A stretch of 64,000 bases of DNA from Candidatus Collierbacteria bacterium (GTDB taxonomy: Bacteria; Patescibacteriota; Microgenomatia; UBA1400; JACPES01): positions 3,862-67,861 of the forward strand of contig JACRNH010000002.1 in NCBI GenBank assembly GCA_016219325.1, read 5' to 3'. Shown here piece after piece: positions 25,655 to 61,207 of this stretch. Position numbers and translations under genes: made by a program. The stretch's first letter is position 1. Every line of letters begins with the position of its first letter. The notes under the pieces were generated by a model, which worked only from the letters and a program-made list of their open reading frames with translations, did not search any database and had not been told where the DNA came from.

Positions 25655-25810
25655 CTGTTATCCGATTTCTGTTTTCAGTTATCGGATTCAGGTTTATCGG
25701 TTTTCAGTCTGTCGGTCTCGAAACCGGAAAACCGAAAACTGGCAAACTTGCAACCGAAAACCGATAACCGAGAACTGATAACTAATTCTATCAGTTTATC
25801 GCTAATCTGC
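25655..25810. repeat. about 130-bp TTATCGGTTTTCGG palindromic element, intergenic copy
   Basis: cagttatcggattcaggtttatcggttttcag ... aaccgaaaaccgataaccgagaactgataact; sits between divergent mreB and the mreCD-mrdA side. Confidence 0.8.
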
Positions 25811-25860
25811 CACTGGCAATTTTGTTCTAGTTATGTAATATTGTGAGGGGGTAGAAAACA

Positions 25861-30652: not shown

Positions 30653-30786
30653 ACCGTTATCAGTTTTCGGTTATCAGTTATCAGTTTCAGGTTGGTCGGT
30701 TTTCGGTTAATCAGTTTCCGAAACCGGCAAACCGAAGACCGATGGACTATAAACCGAAAACAGAAAACTGAGAACTGATAACCGGC
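30653..30786. repeat. about 130-bp TTATCGGTTTTCGG palindromic element, intergenic dprA-topA
   Basis: ccgttatcagttttcggttatcagttatcag ... aaccgaaaacagaaaactgagaactgataaccgg. Confidence 0.8.
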
Positions 30787-30806: not shown

Positions 30807-32948
30807 ATGAAACTTGTTCTTGTTGAGTCTCCGACCAAAGCCCGGACACTGACAAAATTTTTGGGCGGGGATTACAGAGTTGAAGCCACGATGGGGCATT
30901 TGCGGGATCTGCCCAAGAACAGGATGGGATTTTCGGTTAAGTCGGAAAACGGTAAAACTAAATTTTTGCCGGACTACGAAGTGGCGGCGGAAAAAAAATC
31001 CAAAGTTGCCGATTTGGTGGCGGCATCCCGCGGAATGGATAGAATTATTCTGGCGACAGATCCTGATCGGGAAGGAGAGGCGATTGCCTGGCATGTAGCC
31101 GCGCTTTTGCGCGGAACTCAAAATTCAAAATTCAAAATTCAAAATTTTCAAAGGGTTGTTTTTCATCAAATCACCAAAGACGCGATTCTAGACGCGATGA
31201 AGCATCCGCGGGAATTGGATATGAATTTGGTTGACGCTCAACAGGCCAGAAGGATTTTGGACAGGATGGTTGGATATCAGCTATCGCCGTTATTGTGGAG
31301 AAAAATCCGCCGCGGATTATCGGCCGGCCGTGTCCAAAGCGTTGCCGTCAGGATGATTGTTGAACGGGAGCGGGAAATTGAATCTTTTATGCCGGTTGAG
31401 TATTGGGAGGTATTCGTAAAAGTACAAGAAAGTACAAAAATGTACAAAAATGTACAAGAAGGTGAATTTGATGTCAAGCTGATTGAAATTGATGGGAATA
31501 AAGCTGATTTATCGAAGAAAAATCAGGTAGATCCGGTCGTTGAGGATTTGAAAAAAGCGCGATATTCAGTTGAGAAAGTTGATAGAACAGAAGTCAGGAA
31601 GCGGCCATTCCCGCCGTTTACTACCAGTACTTTGCAGCAGGCGGCATCCAGAACTTTCCGCTGGAGCGGTAAAAAAACTATGAATATCGCCCAAAGGTTA
31701 TATGAACATGGTTTTATTACTTATCACCGAACCGATTCAACTAATTTAGCCAAAGAAGCGGTGGAAAATGTCCGCCAATTAATTTTATCTAAATATGGGA
31801 AGGATTATTTGCCGTCTGAAGCAAGATTTTTTAAAACCAAAAACGCGCTGGCGCAGGAGGCTCATGAAGCAATTAGGCCAACCAATCCTATAGATTTTTA
31901 TAATCCGGGAAAACTGGAACAGGAAGTCGGATTAATCGCCAAAGACGCTTTCCGGCTTTATCAATTAATTTGGAAAAAATTTGTCTCCTGTCAGATGGCA
32001 GACCAGATTTATGACCAAACTACGATTAAGGTTTTGGCTCAGGGTATTAAAAAATACGGATTAAAAGTTGTCGGGATGGTGGAAAAGTTTGAGGGATGGA
32101 AAATACTTTATCAGTCGTCAGTTCTCGGTTCTCGGTTGTCAGATAAAAGTCAATCAGTTATCGGTTTATCAGTTTCAGGAGTCGAAAAACTGAAAACCGG
32201 TAAACCAGAAACTGAAAACGGAGAACAGAAAACTGATCAACCGTTACCCGAAGTTCAAGTTGGCGATCAGCTTCAATGCATCAAAGTGGATCCTCAGCAG
32301 AATTTTACCCAACCCCCCGGAAGATTCACTGAGGCGATGTTGATTAAGTTGTTGGAGGAAAAGGGGATTGGCCGGCCGTCAACTTACGCTCCGATTGTAA
32401 GTACGATCCAGGATAGGGGATACGTGGAAAAAATGGAAGGCAGATTTCATCCAATGCCGGTGGGGATAGTGGTAAATGATTTTTTGGTGGAATATTTTTC
32501 TTCAATTGTGGATTATGATTTTACTAAGAATTTGGAAGAGGATTTTGACAAAATAGCGGAAAATAAAAAAGGCTGGAATGATGTGTTAGGGGAATTTTAT
32601 TCTCCGTTTGTTGAAAGGCTGAAGAAAGTTGAAATTGGGGCGGAGAGGAAAAGAATTCCGGCTGAAGAAACAGGGGAAAGCTGTCCCAAATGCGGGGAAG
32701 GCCGGCAAGTTATTCGATCGGGGAAATTCGGTAAATTCCTATCCTGTTCGCTGTTTCCTAAATGCGATTGGAAAAATAAATATGTGGAAAAATCAGGCGT
32801 TAAATGCCCGTTATGCCGTGACGGCGACGTGGTAGTTAAGAAAACAAAAAAGGGTCGTCACTTTTTCGGTTGTTCAAATTATCCGAATTGTAAATTCGCC
32901 AGCTGGAGAAAGCCGGGGGGGGAACTAGCAAAAAAACAGGAAATATGA
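30807..32948 (+). CDS. topA: DNA topoisomerase I
   Basis: MKLVLVESPTKARTL, a TOPRIM domain, the catalytic region, and C-terminal Cys4 zinc ribbons (CPKCGEG, CPLCRDG). Two in-frame repeat insertions. Confidence 0.85.
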   Translation: MKLVLVESPTKARTLTKFLGGDYRVEATMGHLRDLPKNRMGFSVKSENGKTKFLPDYEVAAEKKSKVADLVAASRGMDRIILATDPDREGEAIAWHVAALLRGTQNSKFKIQNFQRVVFHQITKDAILDAMKHPRELDMNLVDAQQARRILDRMVGYQLSPLLWRKIRRGLSAGRVQSVAVRMIVEREREIESFMPVEYWEVFVKVQESTKMYKNVQEGEFDVKLIEIDGNKADLSKKNQVDPVVEDLKKARYSVEKVDRTEVRKRPFPPFTTSTLQQAASRTFRWSGKKTMNIAQRLYEHGFITYHRTDSTNLAKEAVENVRQLILSKYGKDYLPSEARFFKTKNALAQEAHEAIRPTNPIDFYNPGKLEQEVGLIAKDAFRLYQLIWKKFVSCQMADQIYDQTTIKVLAQGIKKYGLKVVGMVEKFEGWKILYQSSVLGSRLSDKSQSVIGLSVSGVEKLKTGKPETENGEQKTDQPLPEVQVGDQLQCIKVDPQQNFTQPPGRFTEAMLIKLLEEKGIGRPSTYAPIVSTIQDRGYVEKMEGRFHPMPVGIVVNDFLVEYFSSIVDYDFTKNLEEDFDKIAENKKGWNDVLGEFYSPFVERLKKVEIGAERKRIPAEETGESCPKCGEGRQVIRSGKFGKFLSCSLFPKCDWKNKYVEKSGVKCPLCRDGDVVVKKTKKGRHFFGCSNYPNCKFASWRKPGGELAKKQEI
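31128..31150. repeat. (AAATTCA)n heptamer repeat inside topA
   Basis: aaaattcaaaattcaaaattcaaaatt, encoding NSKFKIQNF; preceded by the hairpin ccgcgcttttgcgcgg. Confidence 0.8.
32110..32243. repeat. about 130-bp TTATCGGTTTTCGG palindromic element inserted in frame in topA
   Basis: Encodes SSVLGSRLSDKSQSVIGLSVSGVEKLKTGKPETENGEQKTDQ without interrupting the ORF. Confidence 0.8.
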
Positions 32949-34259: not shown

Positions 34260-34825
34260 TGCCCCAGCAGTACGCTCGCCACTCCCGTGGCCTACGTCCA
34301 CGCGTCGTGGTGTCGCGACTGCGGGGTTCGGGCGTGCCAGCTGATTTTTCTGACGAAAAATCAGGGCCCGTCCGAAAAAGGCATGACCCCCGTACCGCCA
34401 GAACTTCCGCCGATTACTGGTATGATGAAGCATGGAAAAATGCCGGTAAGTGCGTCTTTTGTGACTTGCGGAAAAAATATATTATCGCCGAAAAAGACAA
34501 CGTGGTTTTAACCGTAAATCTTTATCAATATATTGACGGGCATCTGATGGTGATTCCCCGCCGTCACTTTGAGAGCTTGGACGAGACCAATCCAGCGGAA
34601 TGGAAAGCGATATTTTATTTGCTTAATCTTGGGGTAAAAAAACTTCAGGATAAATTAAAGATTAATGATATTTACATTTTAGACAGGCCATTGTCAGGGT
34701 TTAAAACCGGTAAGACTGTAGCCCATAGCCATTTCCATATCATTCCCTACAAACAGGAACTGGTTAGTTGGCATTATCAAGAGGTGTCTATTCATCCTGA
34801 GGATTTGGCGAAGAAACTTAGATAG
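34256..34825 (+). CDS. HIT-family hydrolase/transferase
   Basis: HSHFHIIP histidine triad plus CVFCDL. The N-terminal 60 aa is encoded by an unusually GC-rich segment. Confidence 0.5.
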   Translation: MMPQQYARHSRGLRPRVVVSRLRGSGVPADFSDEKSGPVRKRHDPRTARTSADYWYDEAWKNAGKCVFCDLRKKYIIAEKDNVVLTVNLYQYIDGHLMVIPRRHFESLDETNPAEWKAIFYLLNLGVKKLQDKLKINDIYILDRPLSGFKTGKTVAHSHFHIIPYKQELVSWHYQEVSIHPEDLAKKLR

Positions 34826-34905
34826 AAAATAATGAGCAGAAAATAATGAGTAATGTTATTTGATTTGATTCATTACTCTTTACTTCTTACTCATTACTCA
34901 TTATG
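34826..34905. repeat. AATGAGCAGAAAATAATGAGTAATG inverted-repeat element; its 3' arm supplies the dCMP deaminase start
   Basis: aaaataatgagcagaaaataatgagtaatg ... cattactctttacttcttactcattactcattATG. Confidence 0.75.
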
Positions 34906-35418
34906 AACGCTGATATTGAATTAATGCGCCGGGCAGCCAAAATTGCCGGCAACACCAAATGCTGGATTGGGATTGGATGCGTGATTGCCAAGGGCGGGAA
35001 AATTCTGGTCGAGACGTGGAATGAAACTTTGGAGGGGGAGGAGTATTGCCAGAAGTTCCGCAATCATAGAATCAATAAAGGCCCGGCCTTGCAGCACAAA
35101 GCCGGGCCTTATCATAACAACGAAGGGTGTATTCGACATGAGCTTAAACTATCCGGTGGCAAAGACGCGGAAAAAGTTTGCAGTATTCACGCCGAAGTCA
35201 ACGCCATCGCCAAGGCCGCTCGGCAGGGGATTGTAGTTTCCGGCGCCACCATTTACGTCACCAGCTTTCCGTGTTTAATATGCATGAGGGCCATAGTGGC
35301 CGCCGGAATTAAGAAAGTTGTGTATATGAATGATTTTTATAAACCGCACAACATAGAATTATTTGATAAGAACGGAGTTGAATTTAAACAAATTCCTGAA
35401 AATATAGTTTGGAAATAG
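34903..35418 (+). CDS. dCMP deaminase (CMP/dCMP deaminase zinc-binding family)
   Basis: CSIHAEVNAI and PCLICMRAI (the HAE and PCxxC motifs). A GGCC palindrome is inserted in frame. Confidence 0.65.
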   Translation: MNADIELMRRAAKIAGNTKCWIGIGCVIAKGGKILVETWNETLEGEEYCQKFRNHRINKGPALQHKAGPYHNNEGCIRHELKLSGGKDAEKVCSIHAEVNAIAKAARQGIVVSGATIYVTSFPCLICMRAIVAAGIKKVVYMNDFYKPHNIELFDKNGVEFKQIPENIVWK

Positions 35419-41619: not shown

Positions 41620-42483
41620 ATGTTTATTATCGATGGTAAAAAATTAGCAGCGGAAAGAGAACAGCTTCTAAAAATTGAAGTCCAAAAATTAACCAAAAAG
41701 ATTGGCAGAAGACCAAGATTAGTGGCAGTCGAATTGTCCGATGACGAGGGAGGTAGGTTATATTTGAAATTAAAAAAGGCGGCAGCGGAGAGGGTGGGGA
41801 TAGAATTTGATGTTGTAAAAAGGCCTGGCCTTGCATGGCAAGGCCAGGCCTTATCAGACACTGACGGTATCTTCATTCAGCATCCTCGGGGTTACAATAA
41901 GCAAAAATGGCAGGAGCTGGTTGATCAAATTCCACCGGAAAAAGATGTTGATTGTTTGACCAGTGAAAATCTCCGATTGATAAAAGAAGGAAATCCAAGG
42001 TTTTTGCCGGCGACAGTGAAAGCCGTTTTATATTCTCTGGAACACGTTTTTCGTCTGGAAAGGCCTGGCCTTGCTTGGCAAGGCCAGGCCTTATCTGATG
42101 CTCTACGCGGGAAGAAAATCGTTATTCTGGGGCGAAGCCCCATTCTTGGATTACCGCTATTTTGGTGGTTGAAAAGCCTTGGCGTTAATGTGACGCTCTT
42201 TCATTCTCAATCGACGATTAGCGATTTACGATTAGCGGTTAGCGAGGCTGATATTTTAATTTCTTCCGTCGGTAAGCCCGGATTAGTCACCGGCAATATG
42301 GTTAAGAAAGGGGCAATTGTAATTGATTGCGGTTCGCCTTTGGGAGACGTAGTTTTCAGTGAAGTAGCTCCCAAAACCTCAGCTATAACCCCTGTTCCCG
42401 GCGGCGTTGGGCCGCTGACAGTGGTCAGTCTAATGGAAAATGTGGTACAATCCATAAATAACGCAGGCCGGGAAAGCTCCTGA
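41620..42483 (+). CDS. folD: bifunctional methylene-THF dehydrogenase/cyclohydrolase
   Basis: FolD layout with a GxGxxVG-like Rossmann motif. Two identical in-frame GGCC palindrome insertions (PGLAWQGQALSD, twice). Confidence 0.8.
   Translation: MFIIDGKKLAAEREQLLKIEVQKLTKKIGRRPRLVAVELSDDEGGRLYLKLKKAAAERVGIEFDVVKRPGLAWQGQALSDTDGIFIQHPRGYNKQKWQELVDQIPPEKDVDCLTSENLRLIKEGNPRFLPATVKAVLYSLEHVFRLERPGLAWQGQALSDALRGKKIVILGRSPILGLPLFWWLKSLGVNVTLFHSQSTISDLRLAVSEADILISSVGKPGLVTGNMVKKGAIVIDCGSPLGDVVFSEVAPKTSAITPVPGGVGPLTVVSLMENVVQSINNAGRESS
41821..41853. repeat. GGCC palindrome AGGCCTGGCCTTGCATGGCAAGGCCAGGCCTTA (copy 1 in folD)
   Basis: Perfect hairpin-forming sequence inside the coding frame. Confidence 0.85.
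42061..42093. repeat. GGCC palindrome (copy 2 in folD)
   Basis: aggcctggccttgcttggcaaggccaggcctta. Confidence 0.85.
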
Positions 42484-42524: not shown

Positions 42525-43301
42525 TTGCAGGAAGGATTAAGGAGCTATATGCCAAAAAAAGACGATAAGATTTCGATTGATGTTTCTTTGGAAGAATTAA
42601 TGGAGGCAGGGTGTCATTTTGGGCATCAGGCCCGCCGTTGGCATCCAAAAATGGCTCCATATATCTGGGGTCAAAAGGATGGCGTTCACATTTTTGATTT
42701 GGATAAAACCCGCCAGGCTATTTTAGAAGCCGTAGAGATGGTCAGGAAGCTTGCGTCGGAGGGAAAATCAATTATTTTCGTCGGGACCAAGAAACAGGCT
42801 TATCAGATTATTACTGAAGAAGCGGTTAGAGCCGGAATGCCGTTTGTGGCCAAACGCTGGTTGGGGGGAACTTTAACTAATTGGAAACAATTGAAATTAA
42901 GCATCAATAAATTGATTGATCTGAAGATGAAACGTGATGCTAAAGAGTTGGATAAATATACTAAGAAAGAAAGAATTTTAATTGATAAAGAAATTGATAA
43001 ATTGGAGAAATTTGTCGGCGGGCTGCAAAAATTAACAGGTTTGCCGGATGCCATTTTCGTTGTTGACATAAAAAGGGAAGAGTCGGCCGTCAGGGAAGCT
43101 TTCATATTAAATATTCCGGTGATTGCCATAGTCGATTCCAATTGCAATCCGGAAAAAATAACTAAAATAATTCCGGGTAATGACGATGCCATCAGAACTA
43201 TCAGATTAATTACTTCTAAAATTGCCGATGCAGTGCTGGAGGGAAAAATAAAAAACAATGAACAGAAAGCAAAGAGCAATGAAACAAAACTACAGTCATA
43301 A
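42525..43301 (+). CDS. rpsB: 30S ribosomal protein S2
   Basis: GCHFGHQARRWHPKMAPYIWG is the S2 signature. The C-terminal tail NNEQKAKSNETKLQS is encoded by a repeat. Confidence 0.85.
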   Translation: MQEGLRSYMPKKDDKISIDVSLEELMEAGCHFGHQARRWHPKMAPYIWGQKDGVHIFDLDKTRQAILEAVEMVRKLASEGKSIIFVGTKKQAYQIITEEAVRAGMPFVAKRWLGGTLTNWKQLKLSINKLIDLKMKRDAKELDKYTKKERILIDKEIDKLEKFVGGLQKLTGLPDAIFVVDIKREESAVREAFILNIPVIAIVDSNCNPEKITKIIPGNDDAIRTIRLITSKIADAVLEGKIKNNEQKAKSNETKLQS

Positions 43302-43335
43302 CATTGTTTTCTGTTTTCTGCTCATTGTTAATTAA
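43250..43335. repeat. AACAATGAACAGAAAGCAAAGAGCAATG inverted-repeat element spanning the rpsB stop
   Basis: The 5' arm is in frame at the rpsB 3' end; the 3' arm cattgttttctgttttctgctcattgtt lies downstream. Confidence 0.75.
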
Positions 43336-43344: not shown

Positions 43345-43794
43345 ATGTTTTTATTAACTGATATTAAGAGGCTTCGTGAAGAGACAGGCGTTGGAGTGAT
43401 GGATGCCAGAAAAGCATTGGAAGAAAGTAAAGGTGATATCAGAAAAGCCGGAGAATGGCTCAAAAAGAATGCCGTAGCCAAGGCTTTAAAAAAGGCGGAC
43501 AGAACTACCGGAGACGGGGCGATTTTTTCTTACGTTCATCAGACGGGCAAGATTTCGGCAATGGTGAAATTGGGATGCGAAACAGATTTTGTGGCCAGAA
43601 CCGATGATTTTCAAAAGTTAGGAAAAGAATTGACAATGCAGATCGCCTCAATGAAGCCTAAAAATGTTGACGAACTTTACGATCAGGATTGGATCAGGGA
43701 TAACAAGAAAAAAATCAAACAGATAATTGATGAAGTAATTGCAAAAGTAGGGGAGAATATTAAAATACTAGAGATGGTGAGGATGAGTTTTTAG
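43345..43794 (+). CDS. tsf: elongation factor Ts (short form)
   Basis: LREETGVGVMDARKALEESKGDIRKA (the UBA-like N-terminus) and the dimerisation core; only 149 aa. Confidence 0.75.
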   Translation: MFLLTDIKRLREETGVGVMDARKALEESKGDIRKAGEWLKKNAVAKALKKADRTTGDGAIFSYVHQTGKISAMVKLGCETDFVARTDDFQKLGKELTMQIASMKPKNVDELYDQDWIRDNKKKIKQIIDEVIAKVGENIKILEMVRMSF

Positions 43795-43837
43795 CAAGCT
43801 CAAATCGCAAATCTCAAAGTGCAAAATCAAGCTAAAA

Positions 43838-43885
43838 GTTAAAAACTTTGAATTTTGAACTTGGAGTTGATATTTGAGTTTTGAG
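43838..43885. repeat. (TTTTGAA)n-type repeat, intergenic tsf-frr
   Basis: aaactttgaattttgaacttggagttgatatttgagttttgag; related to 8144-8176. Confidence 0.7.
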
Positions 43886-43889
43886 TTAA

Positions 43890-44459: not shown

Positions 44460-45491
44460 TCAAAGAGATCTGGTTATTTTCCTTAAATTCTCAATTCCCC
44501 AATTTATCCAATATTTCCAGTTTAACGGCATATCATGTGCGGGAAGATAAGCAAATTGCTTTCCGCCGAAACCGCGTTTGAACAATGACGGACCTGCAAA
44601 ACGATGTGTCAGGAGCTTTTCGTCGGTCACGTCCCCCCACAAATTGTAAGTCTTGCAGCCTCTCTTTTTTGCCTCCTGAATAATTTCCCATTGAATAGCG
44701 TACGCGGCTGGAATTTTTCTGGCTTCATCAGTTGAGGCAGCGTAGTGGTAGATAGCCTCGCCACGATAAAAAATAACAAAGGCGATGGAAGCTGGCTTAG
44801 AAAGGCCCAGCCTTGCTATTGCAGCAGGGCCGGGCCTTAATTGACTCACGAAAAATAGTTCGACAGAATCAGTCATATTAAATTCTCTAAACTGTTCCAG
44901 TAAATATTTCTTTGAAAATGGCACAAACCCTTCCCGTTTCGCAGTTTCCGCCTGTAGTTTAATAAAATCATCAATCAACTTTTCGTCCTGTGATTTCTCA
45001 ACTTTTATTCCCATCTTCAAAGATTTCTTAATTTCATATCTGGTGCTTTTTCTCATTTCAGATAACAACTGTTCGTCCGTTTTTGTCAAATCAATAACTC
45101 TGGTTAATTGGGCGTGGAGATGCATTGGAGCCGGCCGAAAATCCATCATCTGTAAAGTATCTGATACTTTACAAGTATCAGATACTTGGGGGCGGATTCT
45201 TATAAAAACGCATCTTTCTTTTACCGCGATTTCTTTCATTAGAGTTACTGCCTGTTTCCATTGTGGAACAGAAAAATAGTTTTTTAATAATGGTCCGCCG
45301 GGAACTGTTAAATGCCGGCCGCGTTTAGCCGGTTCGACAATAGCTTGAAACATTCCGTTGTTAAATTTAACCCTATAAACGGGCAGTCCTAATTTTTGAT
45401 GAAATTCTCCCCATGCCCAGGATTGCAGGAAGTTGCCATCGGGGTGATTACCTAATGATTTTCCCCATTTCGATTTAGTTATATCTGTCAT
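44460..45491 (-). CDS. FemAB-family peptidyltransferase (peptidoglycan interpeptide bridge formation)
   Basis: N-terminal FLQSWAWGEFHQ and the FemAB/GNAT-like layout. Contains a GGCC palindrome and a GTAAAGTATCTGATACTTTAC palindrome in frame. Confidence 0.55.
   Translation of the reverse strand: MTDITKSKWGKSLGNHPDGNFLQSWAWGEFHQKLGLPVYRVKFNNGMFQAIVEPAKRGRHLTVPGGPLLKNYFSVPQWKQAVTLMKEIAVKERCVFIRIRPQVSDTCKVSDTLQMMDFRPAPMHLHAQLTRVIDLTKTDEQLLSEMRKSTRYEIKKSLKMGIKVEKSQDEKLIDDFIKLQAETAKREGFVPFSKKYLLEQFREFNMTDSVELFFVSQLRPGPAAIARLGLSKPASIAFVIFYRGEAIYHYAASTDEARKIPAAYAIQWEIIQEAKKRGCKTYNLWGDVTDEKLLTHRFAGPSLFKRGFGGKQFAYLPAHDMPLNWKYWINWGIENLRKITRSL
44802..44840. repeat. GGCC palindrome inside the femAB-like gene
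   Basis: aaaggcccagccttgctattgcagcagggccgggcctta. Confidence 0.8.
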
Positions 45492-45503
45492 TTTATATTA
45501 AAT

Positions 45504-45542
45504 AAGGCCCGGCCTTGCTGCAGCCGCAAGGCCGGGCCTTTA
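45504..45542. repeat. GGCC palindrome, intergenic
   Basis: aaggcccggccttgctgcagccgcaaggccgggccttta. Confidence 0.85.
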
Positions 45543-47667: not shown

Positions 47668-49025
47668 TAAATAAATGGTTTTCGTTTTTTATCCCAGAAT
47701 TTTCCGCGGCGGCAAAGATTTTCAACATCAGATTTGTTTTTCAATAGAGCTTCAACCATAATTTCTAGAAAGATAGTATTTTGCGAACCCTTAACTAAAA
47801 TGATTTCATTCCCTGAAAGATTTTTTGTTAAATAATTTGCCGCCTCTCCGGCGGCAGAAAACCATTCGACCGGCAGTTTTGATTGTTGAATTGCCGGCAG
47901 AAAGTATTGTTTCATCAATGGACCGACAAGGATAATTTTGTCAGCTGATTTTATCGCAGTTTCCGCCACTTTTTTATGTTCGATTTCAGCCTGTGATCCG
48001 AGCTCTCTCATGTCCCCTAAAACAGCAATTTTAATTTTGCCCCCCCCAATATTTTTTAGCATCTCAAGACTTCCATTCATAGTTTTTCCCGAGGCGTTAT
48101 ATGAAGAATCAATAATTGTGGTGTTTTTAATTCCTTGAAAAATCCGGCCTCGGCCGGGGGGAAGATTAAAATTAGCGGTTAAAGCCTCTGAAATTTTTTT
48201 GACCGGCAAATCTAAAATCATTCCGACTGTTGCTGCCACTGCCATGGTTTCACTGTAATAATTGGGAAGAGCAAGATTTAGCAGATTTATGAAGTATGAT
48301 TTATGATTTATGAATAAAGAAATAGATGTTCCATCTAGGCTTGGAAGTATAGATTTAATAACAACGTCAGCGTTCTTCTTTCTTCCGAATGTCACAATGC
48401 GGGCTTCATCTACCGGTTTTAATGAAATAATTTCCGGTTGATCGGCATTCAAAATGGCGTATTGAAGATCCGGGTTTTGTGTCACCAGTTTTCCTTTCTC
48501 TTTGGCTATCGTTGCAACAGAGCCAAATTGTTGCGTATGAACAGGTAGGGCATTTAGAATTACCCCGATATCCGGATGTAGAATTGTCAATAAGTATTCC
48601 ATATTTTTTGGCAGGGTCGGTTCATCGATTCCCATTTCAACCAGATAGCAGTCAAATGCTGAATGCTGAATACTGAATACTGAATGCAATGCTTTAAGCG
48701 GAGCCAGAAGACAAATTTTTAGCCAGTCAAAAAATGAATAGTCGATAAAGTGCAAGCCGAGAATATCAGCCGGAATTCCGGATTCGGAATTGGCCTTTTC
48801 GGCGACTTTAAGATTTTTGAATTTTAGTCTTAACACCGGAGCGATAGCGTCTACGGCACTGGACTTTCCGGCAGAGCCGGTGACTCCGACTATGAATGGG
48901 CGGTTAATTTTTAATACTTGCCGCGCCCAAAACCTTAACCACCATAAAACCGGCCAGCGGAGAATGTTTTTCATCGAATTTATTATAGCTTGTTTAAAGG
49001 CTTGGTTTGGCGTAACCACTTCCAA
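47667..49025 (-). CDS. murF: Mur ligase (MurF-like UDP-MurNAc-pentapeptide synthetase)
   Basis: GVTGSAGKSS P-loop and NSESGIPADILGL. Heptamer repeat insertion LKALHSVFSIQHSAFD. Confidence 0.55.
   Translation of the reverse strand: MEVVTPNQAFKQAIINSMKNILRWPVLWWLRFWARQVLKINRPFIVGVTGSAGKSSAVDAIAPVLRLKFKNLKVAEKANSESGIPADILGLHFIDYSFFDWLKICLLAPLKALHSVFSIQHSAFDCYLVEMGIDEPTLPKNMEYLLTILHPDIGVILNALPVHTQQFGSVATIAKEKGKLVTQNPDLQYAILNADQPEIISLKPVDEARIVTFGRKKNADVVIKSILPSLDGTSISLFINHKSYFINLLNLALPNYYSETMAVAATVGMILDLPVKKISEALTANFNLPPGRGRIFQGIKNTTIIDSSYNASGKTMNGSLEMLKNIGGGKIKIAVLGDMRELGSQAEIEHKKVAETAIKSADKIILVGPLMKQYFLPAIQQSKLPVEWFSAAGEAANYLTKNLSGNEIILVKGSQNTIFLEIMVEALLKNKSDVENLCRRGKFWDKKRKPFI
48655..48688. 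repeat. (TGAATRC)n heptamer repeat inside murF
   Basis: aaatgctgaatgctgaatactgaatactgaatgc. Confidence 0.8.
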
Positions 49026-49746: not shown

Positions 49747-50856
49747 ATGCTAACTGTTTTGATATTTTTTATTCTCCTCTCGGTTCTGGTTCTGGTTCAT
49801 GAACTAGGGCATTTTATCGCAGCCAAAAAATTGGGTGTGGTGGCGGAAGAGTTCGGATTGGGATTACCGCCGAAAATAAGGAGGTTATTTACCTGGCAGG
49901 GGACTGAATTTACTCTTAATTGGTTGCCGTTGGGAGGGTTTGTGAAGATGAGGGGGGAGAATCGCGAAACAGAAAACAATGAGCAAAAAACAATGAGCAA
50001 TGAGGGTGACGGTTACTTTTATGCGCAGAAGCCGTGGAAGCGGGCGGTGATTTTGGTGGCCGGAGTGTTTATGAATTTGGTTTTGGGAGTGGCTGCATTT
50101 ACCGTGGTTTATACGGTTATGGGAATTCCGGAAGAAAGAGATGTAGTAGTAATTGACGGTGTGGCGCCGGGAAGTCCGGCGGAACGAGCACGATTAGAGC
50201 CGAATGATATCGTGCTCGAACTCAAATCTCAAAACTCAAATCTCAAAACTATTAAGACAGAACAATTTATTGAGTTGATCAATCAGAATAGGGGAGAAGA
50301 AGTTAAACTCGTTGTCAAGCGCGGAAGCGAGGATAAGGAGATTTCTATAACTCCCAGGGTTGAGTCAGAGACTCCGGCAGGGGAAGGGGCTTTGGGGGTG
50401 GCAATATCCAATATTCAGTTTATTCATTATCCTTGGTGGCAGATGCCGTTCCGGGCGTCCGTAACCGGGTTTAAGGAAGCTTTGGCGTGGGGAGGAAACA
50501 TCGTCGGAGGATTGGGGAAAATGCTGGTTGATTTAATAGCTCACGGCAAAGTCCCAAATGACGTTGCCGGTCCAGTTGGAATTGCTAGAATTACCGGAGA
50601 AGTTGCCAAAAGAGGCTGGATTCCGTTATTCCAGCTAGCCGGAATTTTATCAATCAATTTGGCGGTGGTGAATATTCTGCCGATTCCGGCTTTAGACGGC
50701 GGCCGGCTGTTATTTTTAGGCATAGAAAAACTGCGGGGCAAGCCGATGGATCCCAAAAAAGAGCGCTTAATCCACTTAGCCGGTTACGCGGTGCTGCTGG
50801 GCTTGATTGTGTTGATAACTTTTCGCGATATATCAATGGCGGTCTCCGGGAAATAA
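49747..50856 (+). CDS. rseP: RseP-like site-2 protease (M50 with PDZ)
   Basis: HELGHFIAAKKLGV (HExxH), a PDZ-like middle domain, and C-terminal ALDGGRLLF. Two in-frame repeat insertions. Confidence 0.75.
   Translation: MLTVLIFFILLSVLVLVHELGHFIAAKKLGVVAEEFGLGLPPKIRRLFTWQGTEFTLNWLPLGGFVKMRGENRETENNEQKTMSNEGDGYFYAQKPWKRAVILVAGVFMNLVLGVAAFTVVYTVMGIPEERDVVVIDGVAPGSPAERARLEPNDIVLELKSQNSNLKTIKTEQFIELINQNRGEEVKLVVKRGSEDKEISITPRVESETPAGEGALGVAISNIQFIHYPWWQMPFRASVTGFKEALAWGGNIVGGLGKMLVDLIAHGKVPNDVAGPVGIARITGEVAKRGWIPLFQLAGILSINLAVVNILPIPALDGGRLLFLGIEKLRGKPMDPKKERLIHLAGYAVLLGLIVLITFRDISMAVSGK
49966..50003. repeat. AACAATGAGCAAAAAACAATGAGCAATGAG element inside rseP
   Basis: Encodes ENNEQKTMSNEG. Confidence 0.75.
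50221..50250. repeat. (CTCAAAW)n heptamer repeat inside rseP
   Basis: ctcaaatctcaaaactcaaatctcaaaact. Confidence 0.8.
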
Positions 50857-51635
50857 TGAATTCATTGGTGTTGAAAATTGCCGGTTTAAATTTGGAATTG
50901 AGATTCAATCGTAAAGACTGGTTTGCTTTTTGCCGCGGAAAATACATGAAGTTTTGGTCCTCTGATAATGGCAAAATTGACATGTCAATTTTGGTCGAAA
51001 CGGGATCTTTAAAAAATAAAAAAGTTGCGGCCAGAATAAAATATTTTTCGAAAAGTTCTGCCGAGCTGTTATTCAACCGGGATTTAGAAAATGATTTTCT
51101 GATATTTAATTTCCTGATTAAAAAAGTTTTTGCCGGAACGCTTTTGCTAAATGACGGATTAATGATTCATGCTTCCTCCGCAGCGATTAACGGCCAGGCG
51201 GTTTTATTCGCAGGTGAATCGGGAAAAGGAAAATCGACGATTGTTAACAAACTAAACTGCCGGATTTTGGCAAACGACAGAAGTATTTTAAGATTTGAAA
51301 ACGGTGTTTCGTTGGTTTTTTGTTCCCCGTTTTATGAACAGGATGACTTTCCAAAAGTCAATATCAGTTGCCCACTGTCGGCGATTTTTTTATTGGAAAA
51401 GAAAAATACTGCTAAAATAAATTTTGCAAAACTTGATAAGGGTGAGGCAATATTCAGGCTTATGCCGCAAGCTGTTGTTAGGGAGGATAGCCCGGGATTG
51501 TCAATAAATCGTCAAGCAGATCTAGCTTTCGGACTGGCTGAAAAATTGGCAAAGAAAATCGGCGTGTATACTTTGTCTTATCCTCTTAATCAGTTTTCCT
51601 TTTTGAAAAAAATGTTAAATGAAAATCAATTTTAA
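50856..51635 (+). CDS. HPr-kinase-C-terminal-like P-loop protein (HprK-related kinase)
   Basis: LMIHASSAAINGQAVLFAGESGKGKSTIV parallels the HprK C-terminal domain. Its start overlaps the rseP stop (TAATG). Confidence 0.5.
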   Translation: MNSLVLKIAGLNLELRFNRKDWFAFCRGKYMKFWSSDNGKIDMSILVETGSLKNKKVAARIKYFSKSSAELLFNRDLENDFLIFNFLIKKVFAGTLLLNDGLMIHASSAAINGQAVLFAGESGKGKSTIVNKLNCRILANDRSILRFENGVSLVFCSPFYEQDDFPKVNISCPLSAIFLLEKKNTAKINFAKLDKGEAIFRLMPQAVVREDSPGLSINRQADLAFGLAEKLAKKIGVYTLSYPLNQFSFLKKMLNENQF

Positions 51636-51927
51636 GACGGTCATCAGGCAAAACAGTAACGTTGTCTCTCATAAATTCAGGAACAAGGTTTATTTACTGG
51701 ACCCGAAATCTAACGAAGTCAGAATTTTAAATGAAAGCGCCGGGCTGATTTGGGAAGCTTTTGAAAAACCTAAAAAAGTATCGCAAGCGGTTAAGGCTTT
51801 GGCCGAGTTCTATAATTTACCCGGAAAGAATGTTAAAAATGACGCATTTGAATTTATCCGGGAGTATTTTAAATTGAAGTTGTTGAATGTTGTAAAACAA
51901 AGCCTAACTCCACCAAGCCAATTTTGA
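51619..51927 (+). CDS. PqqD-family protein (RiPP-recognition-element-like)
   Basis: KVYLLDPKSNEVRILNESAGLIWEAF...VKALAEFYNL...KNDAFEFIREYFKLKLL follows the PqqD pattern (sparse ligand, L-N, then a 'chaperone' helix). Overlaps the upstream gene's stop. Confidence 0.5.
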   Translation: MKINFKTVIRQNSNVVSHKFRNKVYLLDPKSNEVRILNESAGLIWEAFEKPKKVSQAVKALAEFYNLPGKNVKNDAFEFIREYFKLKLLNVVKQSLTPPSQF

Positions 51928-52103
51928 GCCGTTATAAGAGTACGTAAAATCTCCGGGATTGGCGGATATATATCCGGCGTTGCCCGCCAAGGTTAATTTT
52001 TCCACCCTGTCTTTCGGAGGTGAATACAATCTTTTTTTATTTGTTTTTCTGGATTTAATTTTCATAGTTTATGATAACAATAATAATATACTTTTGACAT
52101 ATA

Positions 52104-52547
52104 GTGTCAACTTTAAATTTAATGATACCAAAACAGACGGAAAATTATTTCAGGTTAAAAATATTCAACAAATCATCGGGCGGAATTTTCAAGATGGTTA
52201 TCAGGGGAAACAGTATGTGGCCGTTTTTAAGGCACGGACAGGAGATTACGGTTAGAAAGTTGAAGGAAAACGAGTCGTGCCGGATTGGAGATATCGTGGT
52301 TATAAAAATTAGGAATTTCTTTTTGATCCATAGAGTTCTGTTAAGAAAGAAAACAAAAGATGGTGGGGGCTATGAATATTTTACGAAAGGTGATAGGAGG
52401 TTGGTTGGCGATGGGTGGATAAAGAATAAGAATATTGTCGGTCGAATACCGACAGGGAAAACACAAAGAGTATTTGGTTATTTAACAGCTTGTTACTCTT
52501 TTGCCCTGCTTCTCATTGGGGAAATAATTAACAGAAGAAACGCCTGA
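52104..52547 (+). CDS. S24/S26-type serine peptidase (LexA/signal-peptidase fold)
   Basis: VIRGNSMWPFLRHGQEITV resembles the GDSMeP Ser nucleophile motif, and GRIPTGK is a possible Lys. An alternative start is the ATG at 52194, downstream of a TTGACA-N17-ATTTAA candidate promoter. Confidence 0.4.
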   Translation: MSTLNLMIPKQTENYFRLKIFNKSSGGIFKMVIRGNSMWPFLRHGQEITVRKLKENESCRIGDIVVIKIRNFFLIHRVLLRKKTKDGGGYEYFTKGDRRLVGDGWIKNKNIVGRIPTGKTQRVFGYLTACYSFALLLIGEIINRRNA

Positions 52548-53365
52548 ATCTTTTGCAGAATAGATTGATTGGCAATCAAAAGCCTAAGGAAAATATTGTA
52601 GCGGAATCTAAGATGCATATTGCGGATTGGCGATTTTACGGTGTGGGAATTGATAAACAACGGAACCAATGAGCTAAGGATATTTTTGGGTTTTAATTTT
52701 AATAAGACGGAATTAGGCACATTTGCTTTTGCGGTTTGCTTAGATAGAAGCAGAGGATAATAAGCGAATTCTTTTAAATTCCATGAAGCAAGTCTTGAAA
52801 TAACGATTTCCCAATTAATATCTAGATTTCTTGTAATTAATGAAATATCAAAAGACTGATGCTGATTTCGGCAACTATGATGGAAGAAAAAGTTAAGGCA
52901 TTGATGAAGGAGCATGTCCTCATTTTCCAAAATCAGAAATTTATTTCTTTGAAAGATAATTGATTGCGCCCGCCTGATAAATTCAGAAGTGATTCGTTTT
53001 ACTAACTTTGGAGGCAGAACATTAAAAATATACTTTGTGGGAAAAAATATCTGATTATGAATATCGCAAACAATCGTTGCTCTTGGCAATTTCTTTACAA
53101 AGTTTATTTGTGGCCTTAATGATGGTTGTTGATAGAAACGGTGTTTTGAATAGCCTAAGGATTTAAGAATAAGATTGACTTTAGAAAACGAGCTATTAGG
53201 AATTAGGATATCGATATCAACAGGATGTATTTTGGGCCATCGGCCGGTTAAGAAATAATATTGGGTAATTCCTTTTAGATATACCGCCTGAACCCCTTTG
53301 CGGTTTAGGGCGCGCTGGAGTTTAAGCAATTCATCGACGTAGATAAGTAATTTTTCCTCAATCAT
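52493..53365 (-). CDS. PF14907-like uncharacterised nucleotidyltransferase
   Basis: AVYLKGITQYYFLTGRWPKIHPVDIDILIP matches LKG...Y...R...DIDlLv. Confidence 0.4.
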   Translation of the reverse strand: MIEEKLLIYVDELLKLQRALNRKGVQAVYLKGITQYYFLTGRWPKIHPVDIDILIPNSSFSKVNLILKSLGYSKHRFYQQPSLRPQINFVKKLPRATIVCDIHNQIFFPTKYIFNVLPPKLVKRITSEFIRRAQSIIFQRNKFLILENEDMLLHQCLNFFFHHSCRNQHQSFDISLITRNLDINWEIVISRLASWNLKEFAYYPLLLSKQTAKANVPNSVLLKLKPKNILSSLVPLFINSHTVKSPIRNMHLRFRYNIFLRLLIANQSILQKIQAFLLLIISPMRSRAKE

Positions 53366-53404
53366 TTTGTCGGGAGAAAATGATTAATGTGAAAGTCAAA
53401 TAAT

Positions 53405-53641
53405 TTAACGAACAAAGCCCTGCCGTATTTCTTGTTTAATATTACCTTTTGATAAACAATTTAGAATCAATTCCCAATCTCCGCAAAATTTATATTTAGG
53501 ATTAAATCGTAATCCTTGGACCGCAGATTTTCGGAAAACCATATGTGAAAGTTGTCCAAGAAACGGAGCGGAGCGGGGAAGACGCTTTTGGTTAAATAAG
53601 CAGGAAGCAATTTTAAGTAAATCTTTAAATATATTGACCAA
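53405..53641 (-). pseudogene. family 2 glycosyltransferase, C-terminal fragment
   Basis: FRKSAVQGLRFNP is a GT2 C-terminal motif. It is separated from the N-terminal fragment by a frameshifting 73-bp tandem duplication. Confidence 0.5.
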
Positions 53642-53642
53642 T

Positions 53643-53788
53643 TTAAGTCGGAATATTCTTTGTGGCGGCCAATCTTTCGGATAAATCTTTTGGGACAGGC
53701 AAACGGTCGCTATCTTTAAGTCGGAATATTCTTTGTGGCGGCCAATCTTTCGGATAAATCTTTTGGGACAGGCAAACGGTCGCTATCG
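53643..53788. repeat. perfect 73-bp tandem duplication
   Basis: ttaagtcggaatattctttgtggcggccaatctttcggataaatcttttgggacaggcaaacggtcgctatc occurs twice, back to back. Confidence 0.9.
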
Positions 53789-54116
53789 TGGATTGATCGT
53801 TTTGCAAATATCGCAGAGAAACTTTAAGAAAATCTTTATTCCAAATGTCATCCGAGTCAAGAAATGCAATATAATCGCCTTTGGCATATTGGAACCCTGA
53901 ATTTCTGGCAGCCATAGAACCTTTTGATTTATTGATTCTAACAATTTTGACATGACCGCTAAAAGTTTTTAGTTGAGAAGAAAGCGGGGGTTGCGATCCG
54001 TCATCAACAATGATTATTTCCGTGGGAATATTTTGAGATAATACCGATCCGATCGTTTTCCGTAATAAGGCAACTCTGTTTTTAGCCGGAATAATGACTG
54101 AAGTTGCAAGAGACAT
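53643..54116 (-). pseudogene. family 2 glycosyltransferase, N-terminal fragment
   Basis: VIIPAKNRVALLRKTIGSVLSQN...IIIVDDGS...DSDD is the GT-A DxD layout. It terminates inside the duplicated segment. Confidence 0.5.
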
Positions 54117-54220
54117 GATATAGTGATCAGCTTAATTTGACTATATTATATGATTGTCTCTCAGGGCATAGAATTTTTGCTGATTATGACTAAAAGAAAT
54201 AAGTATAACTGCTTAGAACA

Positions 54221-55201
54221 ATGAGCTATTATCCTACAATTGCAATTGTTGGATGTGGGGCTATTGTTGAAACATTTTATTTGCCATCGTTTCATAAATT
54301 GGGATATGCAAAGAATAAAATTATTCTTGTGGATACAAATAACGACAGGTTACATAAATTGGGGGATAAGTTTGAGTTAAAGAAGATGACCATTGACTAT
54401 AGAAAAATATTGAATAAAGTTGACGGTGTCATTATTACCACACCAAGCTACTTACATTTTGAGCAAACAATTCAATTTCTAAAGAACGGTGTTTATGTTT
54501 TAAGCGAAAAACCGCTTGTTACAAGTTTTTCTCAATATAAAAAGATCTTAAATTTAGAAGAGAAAAGTGGATATAAAATATTGATTAATCATACAAAGAG
54601 ATTATTTCCAGTTTCTATTGAAATAAAAAATAAAATAAATTCTGGAGTAATTGGGAAACCATTGGGCTTTGACTACTCCGAAGGAGGACAGTTTACTTGG
54701 CCGACAGCGTCAGGATTTTATTTTCAATGGGATAAGGGTGTGTTAATTGATCGGGGATCTCACGCAGTTGATTTGGTTTGTTGGTGGTTGGGAAAACCAA
54801 AATCAATTAGTTATATAGATGATTCTTTTGGCGGAAGCGAAGCCGTAGCATTGTTGAATTTTAAGATTAATTCATGTAAAGGTAGAATAAAGTTTAATTT
54901 GTTCAATAAGCTATCTAATAAATATTATATTAAAGGCGCCAAGGGCGAAATTAGCGGTGATATTTACGATTTTACATCGTTTCTATTGACCAACTATTCT
55001 GATAAATCTACTGTTAAGATTACGCTTCCAACAAAGCAAAAGACCTACTTCGATTTTGCGGATATATTGATCAGAAATTTTATAGATATGATTTCTAATC
55101 ATGCTGATCCATTAATATCAGTTAGCGATATTAAAGATTCCGTTGAGACTATTGACTATTGTTATAGACACAGACAAAGATTTAACATGCCATGGTTTTA
55201 A
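54221..55201 (+). CDS. Gfo/Idh/MocA-family oxidoreductase
   Basis: IAIVGCGAIVETFYLPSF Rossmann N-terminus and EKP motif. Confidence 0.55.
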   Translation: MSYYPTIAIVGCGAIVETFYLPSFHKLGYAKNKIILVDTNNDRLHKLGDKFELKKMTIDYRKILNKVDGVIITTPSYLHFEQTIQFLKNGVYVLSEKPLVTSFSQYKKILNLEEKSGYKILINHTKRLFPVSIEIKNKINSGVIGKPLGFDYSEGGQFTWPTASGFYFQWDKGVLIDRGSHAVDLVCWWLGKPKSISYIDDSFGGSEAVALLNFKINSCKGRIKFNLFNKLSNKYYIKGAKGEISGDIYDFTSFLLTNYSDKSTVKITLPTKQKTYFDFADILIRNFIDMISNHADPLISVSDIKDSVETIDYCYRHRQRFNMPWF

Positions 55202-56259
55202 AAATGGAGAAGAGGGTCATTTTTGTTACAGGCGCTACCGGTTTTATTGGGGGAAGAGTTATAGAAAAACTTTCTAATGATAATAAGAATACGGTTATAG
55301 CAGGAGTCCATAATTGGAGTAACGCCGCCCGAATTGGACGGTTTCCGATAATAATGAGGCATTGCGACGTTTTAAATTTGCCCAGTCTAAAAAAAACTTT
55401 GAACGGTGTTACTCATATAATTCATTGTGCCGCAGGCTCAGACGAAATTATTATTAAAGGTACAAGTAATATCCTTAATGCCGCAATGGGGCTAAAGGTT
55501 AAAAGATTAATAAACCTTAGCAGTGCTGCTGTATATGGAAAAATTTCAGGATTAATTGATGAATCTGTTGTGCCTAACCCGATTGATCAATACGGTAAGG
55601 CAAAGCTTTGTGGCGAAAAAGAATGTTTTAAATATATGCTTCAGAGAGTGCCAATCGTAATATTGCGGCCATCAATAGTATACGGTCCGTTTAGCCAAAA
55701 ATGGACAATTGGAATTGGCAGGCAAATACTTCGAAAAAAAATCGGTTTGTCGTCAGGGTTTGAGGGGAAATGTAATTTATTATACGTCGATGATTTAATT
55801 GATGCAATCTTCTTATCTTTACATAAAGAAGAGGCGGTAAGTGAAACATTCAATGTTAATGGTCCGGAAATTGTGAGCTGGAATGATTATTTTAGAATTT
55901 TTAATAGATTGTTATCATCCGAAGCGCTCATCAGCATAAAACACACAGAATACCTTAGATTAATGGTTGCGGCTAATTTTTTAGGTCCAGTTAAAATAGC
56001 GGCTAAATTAGCTCTAGCCAAGCAGGAATCGTTAATCAGATTTATTTATAGAAGATTTCAATTAATGAGAAAAATTATGGATGGGGTTGAAAACGAAATT
56101 AAATTAAACATTAATTCGTCTGACCTTAGATTATTCCAGCTTCGCGCAATTTATGAAACCAAAAAGATAAATCGCGTTTTAAAATTTAAACCGAGAACCA
56201 GTATTGAAACTGGATTAAAAAAGACGATTGCGTGGATGAAACATGTTGAAATCATCTAG
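55192..56259 (+). CDS. NAD-dependent sugar epimerase/dehydratase (SDR)
   Basis: VIFVTGATGFIGGRVIEKL and YGKAK (YxxxK). Confidence 0.65.
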   Translation: MVLKMEKRVIFVTGATGFIGGRVIEKLSNDNKNTVIAGVHNWSNAARIGRFPIIMRHCDVLNLPSLKKTLNGVTHIIHCAAGSDEIIIKGTSNILNAAMGLKVKRLINLSSAAVYGKISGLIDESVVPNPIDQYGKAKLCGEKECFKYMLQRVPIVILRPSIVYGPFSQKWTIGIGRQILRKKIGLSSGFEGKCNLLYVDDLIDAIFLSLHKEEAVSETFNVNGPEIVSWNDYFRIFNRLLSSEALISIKHTEYLRLMVAANFLGPVKIAAKLALAKQESLIRFIYRRFQLMRKIMDGVENEIKLNINSSDLRLFQLRAIYETKKINRVLKFKPRTSIETGLKKTIAWMKHVEII

Positions 56260-60024: not shown

Positions 60025-60055
60025 AAAGTAAATTTTAACCTATTGACTTTTTATT

Positions 60056-61177: not shown

Positions 61178-61207
61178 AACAAAGGTTATCCGAGATGGTG
61201 AATTTTT

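Follow-up and report, generated by a model that had tools for sequence, protein, structure and literature searches.

The window examined here (the whole stretch of DNA analysed, 64,000 nucleotides of contig JACRNH010000002.1) carries at the junction of rpsB and tsf, the genes for ribosomal protein S2 and the elongation factor EF-Ts, a hairpin assembled from short degenerate heptanucleotide units. Its arms belong to a dispersed repeat, designated family A, which an earlier note had reported from eight loci as a repeat encoding NEQK peptides and reshaping gene ends, a description from which the heptamer-array nature of the element was absent. Judging by its proteins the host, a groundwater bacterium with a tiny genome, is a member of Candidatus Collierbacteria (Microgenomates, in the candidate phyla radiation (CPR)/Patescibacteria), represented by a metagenome-assembled genome (MAG): the Wzy-like open reading frame (ORF) of the window is 100% identical to the NCBI Collierbacteria protein P0121, and the closest GTDB representative for S2 is the Collierbacteria MAG L002, at 82% identity.

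The rpsB-tsf junction

42549-43301, plus strand: rpsB, ribosomal protein S2 (Pfam Ribosomal_S2, 2.8e-85); likely start ATG 42549, mechanical ORF from TTG 42525
43247-43281, plus strand: 5' arm of A-rich heptamers (AAAAAAC AATGAAC AGAAAGC AAAGAGC AATG), encoding the S2 tail ...KNNEQKAKSNE
43282-43301, plus strand: hairpin loop, encoding TKLQS and the rpsB stop TAA (43299-43301)
43302-43333, minus strand: 3' arm, the family consensus block AACAATGAGCAGAAAACAGAAAACAATG, between rpsB and tsf
43345-43794, plus strand: tsf, a short EF-Ts of 149 amino acids (Pfam EF_TS); the first nine codons, MFLLTDIKR, are part of a conserved junction module

The S2 product read from ATG 42549 has 250 amino acids, and an identical protein is present in a Logan assembly; exact look-up of the product taken from TTG 42525 gave no match. 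In the minimum free energy fold the 5' arm pairs with 43302-43329 (-27.8 kcal/mol, z -5.35). Since the rpsB TAA sits in the hairpin loop, the 5' arm is necessarily translated (...EGKIKNNEQKAKSNETKLQS followed by the stop). The Pfam S2 domain ends at ...AVLEGK, and the following 15 residues and the stop come from the 5' arm and loop, which bears out the proposal of the earlier note that the repeat forms the C-terminus of S2. Beyond ...AVLEGK the tails of 60 S2 homologues all differ and many look repeat-derived; those S2 relatives that share the terminal peptide share the repeat too, i.e. no repeat-less orthologue with the same peptide was encountered. The 3' arm is complementary at 28/28 positions to the family-A copy at 25857-25884, and it fits this remote copy better than its own 5' partner.

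Relatives of the host display several other arrangements at this junction. L020, L021, L022 and L002 have a solo A-rich heptamer array at the rpsB end and the 3' arm is absent, S2 identity to the window being 83-91% for L020 and L002 (local MAFFT) and 83-88% for L021 and L022 (BLASTP). In L020, L021 and L022 the stop of rpsB and the start of tsf share an ATGA; in L002 the tsf ATG lies 13 nucleotides (nt) upstream of the rpsB stop, inside the array. A single array of the same family (NNEQKAENNESKAKSN) in L016 (S2 58%) provides the S2 tail and is read in a second frame as the EF-Ts N-terminus, and the arrays of L002, L016 and L034 all code for the upstream C-terminus and the downstream N-terminus in overlapping frames. 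A different palindrome, GTCATTGCGAGCGAGC...CTCGCAATGAC, occupies the rpsB-tsf junction of L017 (10720-10830; S2 80% identical) and also of L018; it yields the S2 tail PSVIASEPV with its stop and a candidate tsf start, and the peptide recurs in other S2 tails (e.g. P0012). The sequences suggest that this palindrome may be a widespread CPR element.

The 5' arm, the loop with TAA, the 3' arm, an AT-rich spacer and the first nine tsf codons together make up a module of ~125 nt that is shared with L029. There it is 87% identical (110/126) to that of the window, as compared with 59-65% for the adjoining genes (p = 6e-10), and the two loops agree at 18 of 20 positions. However, S2 of L029 is only 55% identical to that of the window, and closer relatives (S2 80-91%), L020, L021, L022 and L002 among them, are without the module. 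EF-Ts starts with MTIDDIR in the closest relatives and with MVLLTDIK in L029, which has the module. This discordance favours acquisition of the module by copying or recombination rather than by vertical descent. The ancestral junction would have consisted of a solo array that coded for the S2 tail and whose stop overlapped the start of tsf, and in the present lineage the module would have conferred both a new 15-residue S2 tail and a new EF-Ts N-terminus.

The view that the hairpin is terminator-like, also advanced in the earlier note, was not upheld. An intrinsic (rho-independent) terminator was dropped as a candidate because the stem is AT-rich, the loop is 20 nt long, the TAATTAATTTAATTAT that follows contains no T-run, and the terminator scan of the window, which did call GC-rich AAGGCCCGGCCTT hairpins, called no family-A hairpin. 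Hairpin-mediated translational coupling was demoted to a minor rival, since the predicted fold leaves the 15 nt upstream of the tsf ATG unpaired and outside the stem, and a plain ATGA overlap is what the closest relatives have. Where the window and L029 differ in the 5' arm the 3' arm shows no matching change, i.e. compensatory substitutions were not seen, and Rfam 15 at gathering thresholds found nothing in the whole window besides tRNA-Trp. The EF-Ts itself, of 149 amino acids here and 146-158 in relatives, is about half the usual bacterial length and spans only the N-terminal part of the Pfam EF_TS model.

Anatomy and abundance of family A

Each copy of family A is a short array of degenerate 7-nt units, found solo or as a folding inverted pair. 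The units are AATGAGC, AATGAGT, AGAAAAC, AGAAAGT and AAAGAGC, the arrays finish in AATG beside the loop, and the consensus block is AATGAGC-AGAAAAC-AGAAAAC-AATG. C-type and T-type subfamilies can be distinguished, and both arms of any hairpin are always of one and the same subfamily. The copies in addition to the pair at 43247-43333 are as follows.

21869-21976: hairpin in the Wzy_C/TPR (Wzy-like) gene (21327-23426, minus strand), encoding ESNEQKVMSNEK...LLSTFYFLLIIF
22079-22156: hairpin in the Wzy-like gene, with (AATGAGC)x4 on the plus strand, encoding MSRKQKTMTTDNPLLIAHCSLLIALLS
22682-22750: hairpin in the Wzy-like gene, encoding IMSNEQKVMSSGITFYFLLIIF
25853-25884, plus strand: solo array AGAAAACAATGAGCAGAAAACAGAAAACAATG, containing both candidate ATGs of a PAP2-like gene (25861-26502; MSRKQKTM...)
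28358-28394, plus strand: solo array KIMSNEQKIESNEK, in frame in mrdA (PBP2)
34824-34905: hairpin between a HIT-family gene (stop TAG 34823-34825) and the dCMP deaminase gene dcd (ATG 34903)
49966-50003, plus strand: solo array ENNEQKTMSNEG, in frame in rseP, in the linker after GGFVKMRGE

The motif is thus present at all eight loci listed in the earlier note. In the window AATGAGCAGAAAA has 5 exact matches and 9 at <=1 mismatch, i.e. a core density of ~1 per 7 kb, against a chance level of 0.30 ± 0.61 (100 dinucleotide shuffles, of which 0/100 reach 9); at <=2 mismatches there are 13 observed matches and 5.1 expected. The inverted pairing that had been described as usual holds for five of the eight loci, with arms of 28-39 nt that form hairpins of 25-35 bp at -18 to -36 kcal/mol (z -2.4 to -5.6 relative to shuffles), and the three remaining loci are solo arrays. 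Single arms have no self-complementarity, and in all solo arrays of the window the sense strand is the A-rich strand. Runs of a single unit are confined to (AATGAGC)x4 at 22079-22112 and (AGAAAGT)x3 at 21883-21903, most copies being made of 3-5 mixed units in conserved order. A strict lag-7 self-match finds 15 arrays in the window, compared with 0-1 at periods 5, 6 and 8-12 and 0 in shuffles, and a looser threshold finds 36 as compared with 2.3 in shuffles. Heptamer arrays are distributed over 6-50 kb of the window and occur in Collierbacteria-like loci, and in only 1 of 13 outgroup loci.

Most family-A copies are intragenic, and their coding capacity is distinctive on both strands. The A-rich strand reads N-E-Q-K (hydrophilic) in one frame and M-S-R-K-Q-K in a second, the third containing TGA, and the T-rich strand encodes an F/L/I-rich helix. 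The unit AATGAGC includes ATGA, a start overlapping a stop, and therefore arrays at junctions readily give the upstream gene a new stop and the downstream gene a new start.

Copies at other gene ends

The remodelling of gene termini proposed in the earlier note is supported by cases beyond those it named, i.e. the EF-Ts N-terminus and both candidate ATGs of the PAP2-like gene. The orthologue of the latter in L019 also has a repeat-derived N-terminus, which is different and longer. The arms of the hairpin between the HIT-family and dCMP deaminase genes (34824-34855 and 34871-34905; -18 kcal/mol, z -2.5) abut the deaminase ATG, and comparison of the junctions indicates that the hairpin probably split an ATGA stop/start overlap, such as is found in L017; L002 has an unrelated spacer. 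The further claim that the array supplies the deaminase start codon is not established. The ATG stands at the position where the repeat-less genes of L002 and L017 start, and the N-terminus is kept, M-x-D-[IL]-E-L in these two versus MNADIEL here, with one extra residue.

Copies inside coding genes

In-frame insertion into mrdA, rseP and the O-antigen-ligase-like (Wzy-like) gene was confirmed, in each case at a site that varies among orthologues, and the ORFs of Wzy-like, PBP2, RseP, TopA, Fmt, Def, Mur-ligase and FolD stay open through their repeats. The mrdA array adds 9 amino acids relative to the solved MrdA 7kis and is common to L033, at 30/32 identical nucleotides compared with roughly 78% in the flanks (judged by eye); in L019 the same site holds a longer repeat insert of another family. 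At the rseP linker site L002 has a longer array (KDNEQKTMSKEQKAKNKEQ).

The Wzy-like gene has four variable sites that are filled by different repeat families in different relatives. At two of these the inserts are missing from distant orthologues and at the other two there is no net gain in length, so that for this gene the insertions of the earlier note stand as to reading frame and not as to length, two of the three family-A hairpins adding none. In these two the T-rich arm coincides with a transmembrane helix that is also present in distant orthologues. The hairpin at 21869-21976 (-35.9 kcal/mol, z -5.5) is shared with L019, the arms being 92% identical, the flanks 76% (p = 0.001) and the loop 48%. 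The site at 22079-22156 is without an insert in distant orthologues and holds other repeat families in close ones, and at the site of the 22682-22750 hairpin (-33.1 kcal/mol, z -5.6) L019 has a different repeat (CCAATAA / GGGTTATT). An AlphaFold (AF2) model of the protein (mean confidence score, pLDDT, 77.6) gives the A-rich arms and loops low confidence and the T-rich arms as confident helices. From the alignments and models compared (Wzy-like, PBP2, TopA) the intragenic inserts appear to fall at permissive loops or linkers.

Spread and turnover

Thirteen metagenome contigs contain an exact family-A 25-mer, in no fewer than 9 different gene contexts that include junctions, N-termini, internal loops and two hairpins, and there it is often embedded in an identical 32-nt block. 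The same order of differing units (AATGAGC AATGAGC AGAAAAC AGAAAAC AATG) is thus exact over 25-32 nt in several species, and this likeness from copy to copy would seem far to exceed what slippage alone would give. At fixed sites (in the Wzy-like gene, PBP2 and the PAP2-like gene and at the rpsB end) sister species hold other repeat families, and where a copy is shared, as in the Wzy-like gene, its arms have diverged less than the coding DNA on either side and its loop more. The 25-mer had 0 hits in viral contigs, i.e. nothing pointed to a phage vector. A possible AT duplication at the HIT-dcd junction is a single case and is compatible with a split ATGA.

Origin and maintenance of the repeats

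On this evidence family A is probably a dispersed selfish or near-neutral repeat that is copied between loci, is prone to slippage and survives only at permissive sites, presumably without a dedicated function. Arrays would be copied from locus to locus, by transposition or by recombination after DNA uptake, and would lengthen or shorten through slippage. Selection would filter the copies, those at packed-gene junctions, at protein termini and in surface loops and linkers being kept; the coding properties of the two strands, hydrophilic for the A-rich and helical for the T-rich, are why arrays would be tolerated. Several observations weigh against such a history. No mobilising enzyme was seen in the 64-kb window: Pfam, which covered 60 of the 78 ORFs, many of them without any hit, found no transposase, reverse transcriptase or REP-associated tyrosine transposase (RAYT) domain, the accessory genes encountered being limited to toxin-antitoxin (PIN/MazE, AbiEii) and glycan genes. 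Alignment of filled sites with empty or alternative ones revealed no consistent target-site duplication. The solo arrays are non-palindromic and array length varies between orthologues (rseP), exactly as slippage alone predicts. The slower evolution of arms than of flanking synonymous sites could mean selection at the nucleotide level, i.e. function, and the rpsB-tsf module could be ancestral, strongly constrained at the nucleotide level and repeatedly lost. Finally, the relatives compared are 55-91% identical in S2, and no insertion event was caught between near-identical genomes.

Of the alternatives, an artefact of misassembled or mis-sequenced low-complexity DNA is extremely unlikely. The DNA does derive from a metagenome-assembled genome, and elsewhere in the window there is a suspicious-looking perfect 73-bp tandem duplication (53642-53787), but every array leaves its ORF open, other assemblies hold the same arrays at orthologous sites, and an independent Logan assembly, L001 (SRR12113407), is 100% identical across 6,753 bp with the rpsB hairpin included, which therefore is no assembly artefact. 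A second explanation, which seems improbable, is that nothing moves: the repeats would arise purely locally by replication slippage of 7-nt units (through a polymerase-footprint bias), their inverted partners by local template switching, and the similarity between loci would reflect a shared mutational or codon bias. The strict 7-nt periodicity, the differing lengths of orthologous arrays (rseP of the window versus L002, and the S2 tails) and the excess of heptamer simple sequence repeats (SSRs) in many bacteria, ascribed to slippage (Mrazek 2007, as cited in PMC4692102 and PMC4679880), all fit this explanation, and the complementarity between hydrophobic and hydrophilic codons gives the T-rich codons of helices a likeness to K/E/N/Q codons read in reverse complement. 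It does not, however, account readily for an order of different units that is identical through 25-32 nt in several species and at least 9 unrelated contexts, for an rpsB 3' arm that matches a remote copy at 28/28 positions yet mismatches its own partner, or for the sharing of the non-repetitive loop and spacer of the rpsB-tsf module with the distant lineage L029.

The copies at junctions might alternatively be functional cis-acting hairpins of the mRNA, giving protection from 3' exonucleases, attenuation of read-through or translational coupling, in which case ribosomes reaching the end of rpsB would open the 5' arm and the copies within genes would be by-products. The position exactly between co-directional and otherwise overlapping genes (rpsB-tsf, HIT-dcd, L032), where the downstream ATG follows the end of the 3' arm at 0-15 nt, speaks for such a role, as do the stable folds, the conservation of arms above flanks with loops free to vary, and the strong conservation of the rpsB-tsf module against a background of 55%-identical S2. 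This function is nevertheless unlikely: a plain ATGA overlap suffices in the closest relatives, there is no T-run, terminator call or Rfam match, the 15 nt before the tsf ATG lie outside the stem, the comparison with L029 gave no compensatory changes, and most copies are intragenic or solo. Very unlikely is a role of the repeated words as recognition sequences, either for DNA uptake and recombination, like the DNA uptake sequence (DUS) of Neisseria and the uptake signal sequence (USS) of Haemophilus, or for a heptamer-specific binding protein. The window does contain a gene for DprA, the arms keep their sequence from species to species better than their flanks do, the junction module has apparently been exchanged between lineages, and protein binding was proposed by MacGregor for TAACTGA heptamers (PMC4679880). 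Against this, the window has GC palindromes and three or more heptamer families instead of one motif, the core occurs only ~1 per 7 kb, the solo arrays are all A-rich in the sense strand, and a 12-kb glycan island is almost without arrays.

The preferred reading, a dispersed and largely neutral repeat, may be extended to a sequence-directed copy-paste process for heptamer elements in Collierbacteria and neighbouring Microgenomates, which would include exchangeable 'junction cassettes' of ~125 nt swapped by natural transformation. Such cassettes would carry a protein tail, stop codon, hairpin, spacer, new start and N-terminal codons, and the process, if true, would continually rewrite the termini and loops of S2, EF-Ts, PBP2, TopA and RseP in supposedly streamlined genomes; at present this extension is a rather doubtful one.

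Comparison with known repeat systems

Among the closest counterparts are the short tandemly repeated repetitive (STRR) sequences of the cyanobacteria Calothrix and Nostoc and the 'long SSR' (LSSR) class of Mrazek et al. 2007, which consist of tandem 7-nt units that are over-represented and dispersed (PMC4692102). Like these, the window arrays are tandem 7-nt units in excess of other periods, at many loci, sometimes inverted and variable between relatives; unlike these, they are made of other units, in short degenerate arrays of 3-5 mixed units rather than long perfect runs, are mostly translated in essential genes rather than mainly intergenic like the STRR and GGGAATC-type repeats, and are found in a CPR host. 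The window arrays belong to the heptanucleotide tandem-repeat class, although long runs of a single unit, by which that class is also recognized, are lacking. Direct repeats of TAACTGA have been described in marine Beggiatoaceae, Cyanobacteria and Bacteroidetes (MacGregor 2015, PMC4679880), and these too hug start codons, overlap the upstream stop, enter proteins only peripherally and are suspected of horizontal spread (PMC4679880). Family A differs in its units, in the frequency of inverted pairs (5/8 loci here, a single case there) and in its presence also in internal loops of essential enzymes; a second heptamer family of the window contains AACTGAT units that recall the TAACTGA repeats.

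The Rickettsia palindromic elements (RPEs) are likewise palindromes that a reduced genome carries, in frame, within housekeeping genes unrelated to one another, with a fold-compatible family-specific peptide (PMC10969869). However, RPEs are ~100-150 bp long and are not built of heptamers, as opposed to elements of 30-130 bp here that also occur as half-elements; the likeness is one of analogy and not of membership, with no sequence relationship apparent, although the two were not compared directly, and with a host outside the Rickettsiales. The repetitive extragenic palindromic (REP) sequences and REPINs resemble family A in having a ~30-nt unit that is single or in an inverted doublet with a short spacer, forming a hairpin, where doublets appear to be what replicates and singlets what is left of them (PMC3116915). 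REPs differ in being extragenic, with a short palindrome of its own in each unit and a RAYT gene alongside, as against mostly intragenic non-palindromic heptamers here, and the scanned ORFs of the window included no RAYT-like gene. A match to the PARCEL palindromic coding repeats (PMC2996958) was rejected, these being 25-residue amphipathic tandem domains of surface proteins with a different architecture. Terminal inverted repeats as in miniature inverted-repeat transposable elements, or MITEs, occur at five of the eight loci, the other three being solo arms. By the available tests the window repeats do not belong to the RPEs or REPs and are not assignable to the MITEs. DUS pairs and Correia elements of Neisseria and the USS of Haemophilus are short words, in inverted pairs, that lie at the ends of genes and, in frame, in parts of proteins under little constraint, and DUS/USS genomes carry a single motif at ~1 per kb. 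The window differs from these in having several unrelated families and a core found 9 times in 64 kb, rather than one dominant dense word. No account of heptamer or palindromic repeats in Patescibacteria or Collierbacteria turned up in searches of the literature, and the window repeats may be regarded as a variant of the known heptanucleotide STRR/LSSR repeats and of RPE-like in-frame palindromes, with new features.

Significance

Genomes of the CPR/Patescibacteria are held to be minimal and packed, and yet at least 12 housekeeping genes in 64 kb here carry translated repeat DNA, the repeat-bearing genes including those for S2, EF-Ts, PBP2, TopA, RseP, Fmt, Def, FolD, a Mur ligase, dCMP deaminase and the Wzy-like protein. 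For annotation and phylogenomics this means that start codons, C-termini and indels of markers such as S2 can be repeat-derived, turn over fast and mislead alignments and gene calls. For protein evolution, the hairpins offer a hydrophilic loop and a hydrophobic helix and AATGAGC offers ATGA stop/start modules, together a simple route by which termini may be renewed and neighbouring genes uncoupled or coupled again. For repeat biology, how heptanucleotide repeats arise and spread is an old puzzle, known from cyanobacteria, Xanthomonas and Beggiatoaceae; in a clade that has many small genomes and plentiful metagenomic data on populations, the mechanism can be tested by comparing genomes and by analysing reads.

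Further repeat families and other features of the window

Family A is not the single special family that the earlier note had made of it. At least two further heptamer families of like behaviour and one family of GC-rich palindromes accompany it in the window.

22924-23054: second heptamer family (GTTATCG / AACCGAW / AACTGAT), hairpin inside the Wzy-like gene
25655-25786 and 30656-30784: second family, intergenic
32110-32246: second family, inside topA
8072-8180: third heptamer family (GAATTCA / TGAATAC / AAATTCA / AAATCTC), in fmt
20475-20514: third family, in def
28943-28981 and 29241-29267: third family, in mrdA
31112-31151: third family, in topA
43796-43888: third family, intergenic
48651-48689: third family, in a Mur ligase gene
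50218-50251: third family, in rseP
41819-41858 and 42053-42098: GC-rich palindromes, in frame in folD
35077-35116: GC-rich palindrome, in frame in dcd
44801-44842: GC-rich palindrome, in frame in a FemAB gene
23697, 45500-45541 and 47642: further GC-rich palindromes

The hairpins of the second family are 125-140 nt long and fold at -42 to -57 kcal/mol. Its insert in the Wzy-like gene is missing in P0122 and in distant orthologues and has a pLDDT < 50, and the 137-nt hairpin in topA lies between positions equivalent to E. coli TopA residues 437 and 448, encodes ...SVLGSRLSDKSQSVIGLSVSGVEKLKTGKPETENGEQKTD and gives TopA ~30 amino acids relative to the solved homologue. Its units overlap the TAACTGA heptamer of Beggiatoaceae and cyanobacteria. 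Arrays of the third family are translated as NSKFKTQNSKFKT, QNSEFRIQN or SVFSIQYSVF within several essential enzymes. The GC-rich palindromes (AAAGGCCNGGCCTT / AAAGGCCNGGCCTTGC...GCAAGGCCNGGCCTT) serve between genes as terminator-like hairpins and are also translated in frame, encoding RPGLAWQGQALS twice in FolD and KGPALQHKAGPY in the deaminase.

Nearly no heptamer arrays are found, unlike in the remaining window, in a 12-kb low-GC (32-36%) island of glycan synthesis at ~51600-62000, which contains GT2, GT4/GT1, epimerase, GFO/IDH/MocA oxidoreductase, a second Wzy_C protein and radical SAM genes, and which may have been acquired recently. The perfect 73-bp tandem duplication at 53642-53787 lies in a family-2 glycosyltransferase gene, where it adds a stop and splits the gene into ORFs 53646-54116 and 53408-53641; it is either a real frameshifting event or an assembly artefact. 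Copies of a ~53-nt direct repeat with inverted TTGTCAATACTT / AAGTATTGACAA at 15165-15259 and 16129-16181 flank a PaaX-like regulator gene (15289-16125) and may be operator sites. Accessory genes at 1149-1806, 10511-11185, 24314-24523 and 6229-6633 comprise a MazE/PrlF-like antitoxin with a PIN toxin, an AbiEii nucleotidyltransferase toxin, a PIN fragment and a homologue of the 23S rRNA intervening-sequence protein. A 24-nt perfect palindrome, CTGTAAAGTATCTGATACTTTACA, occurs in identical form at 21278-21301 and 45150-45173.

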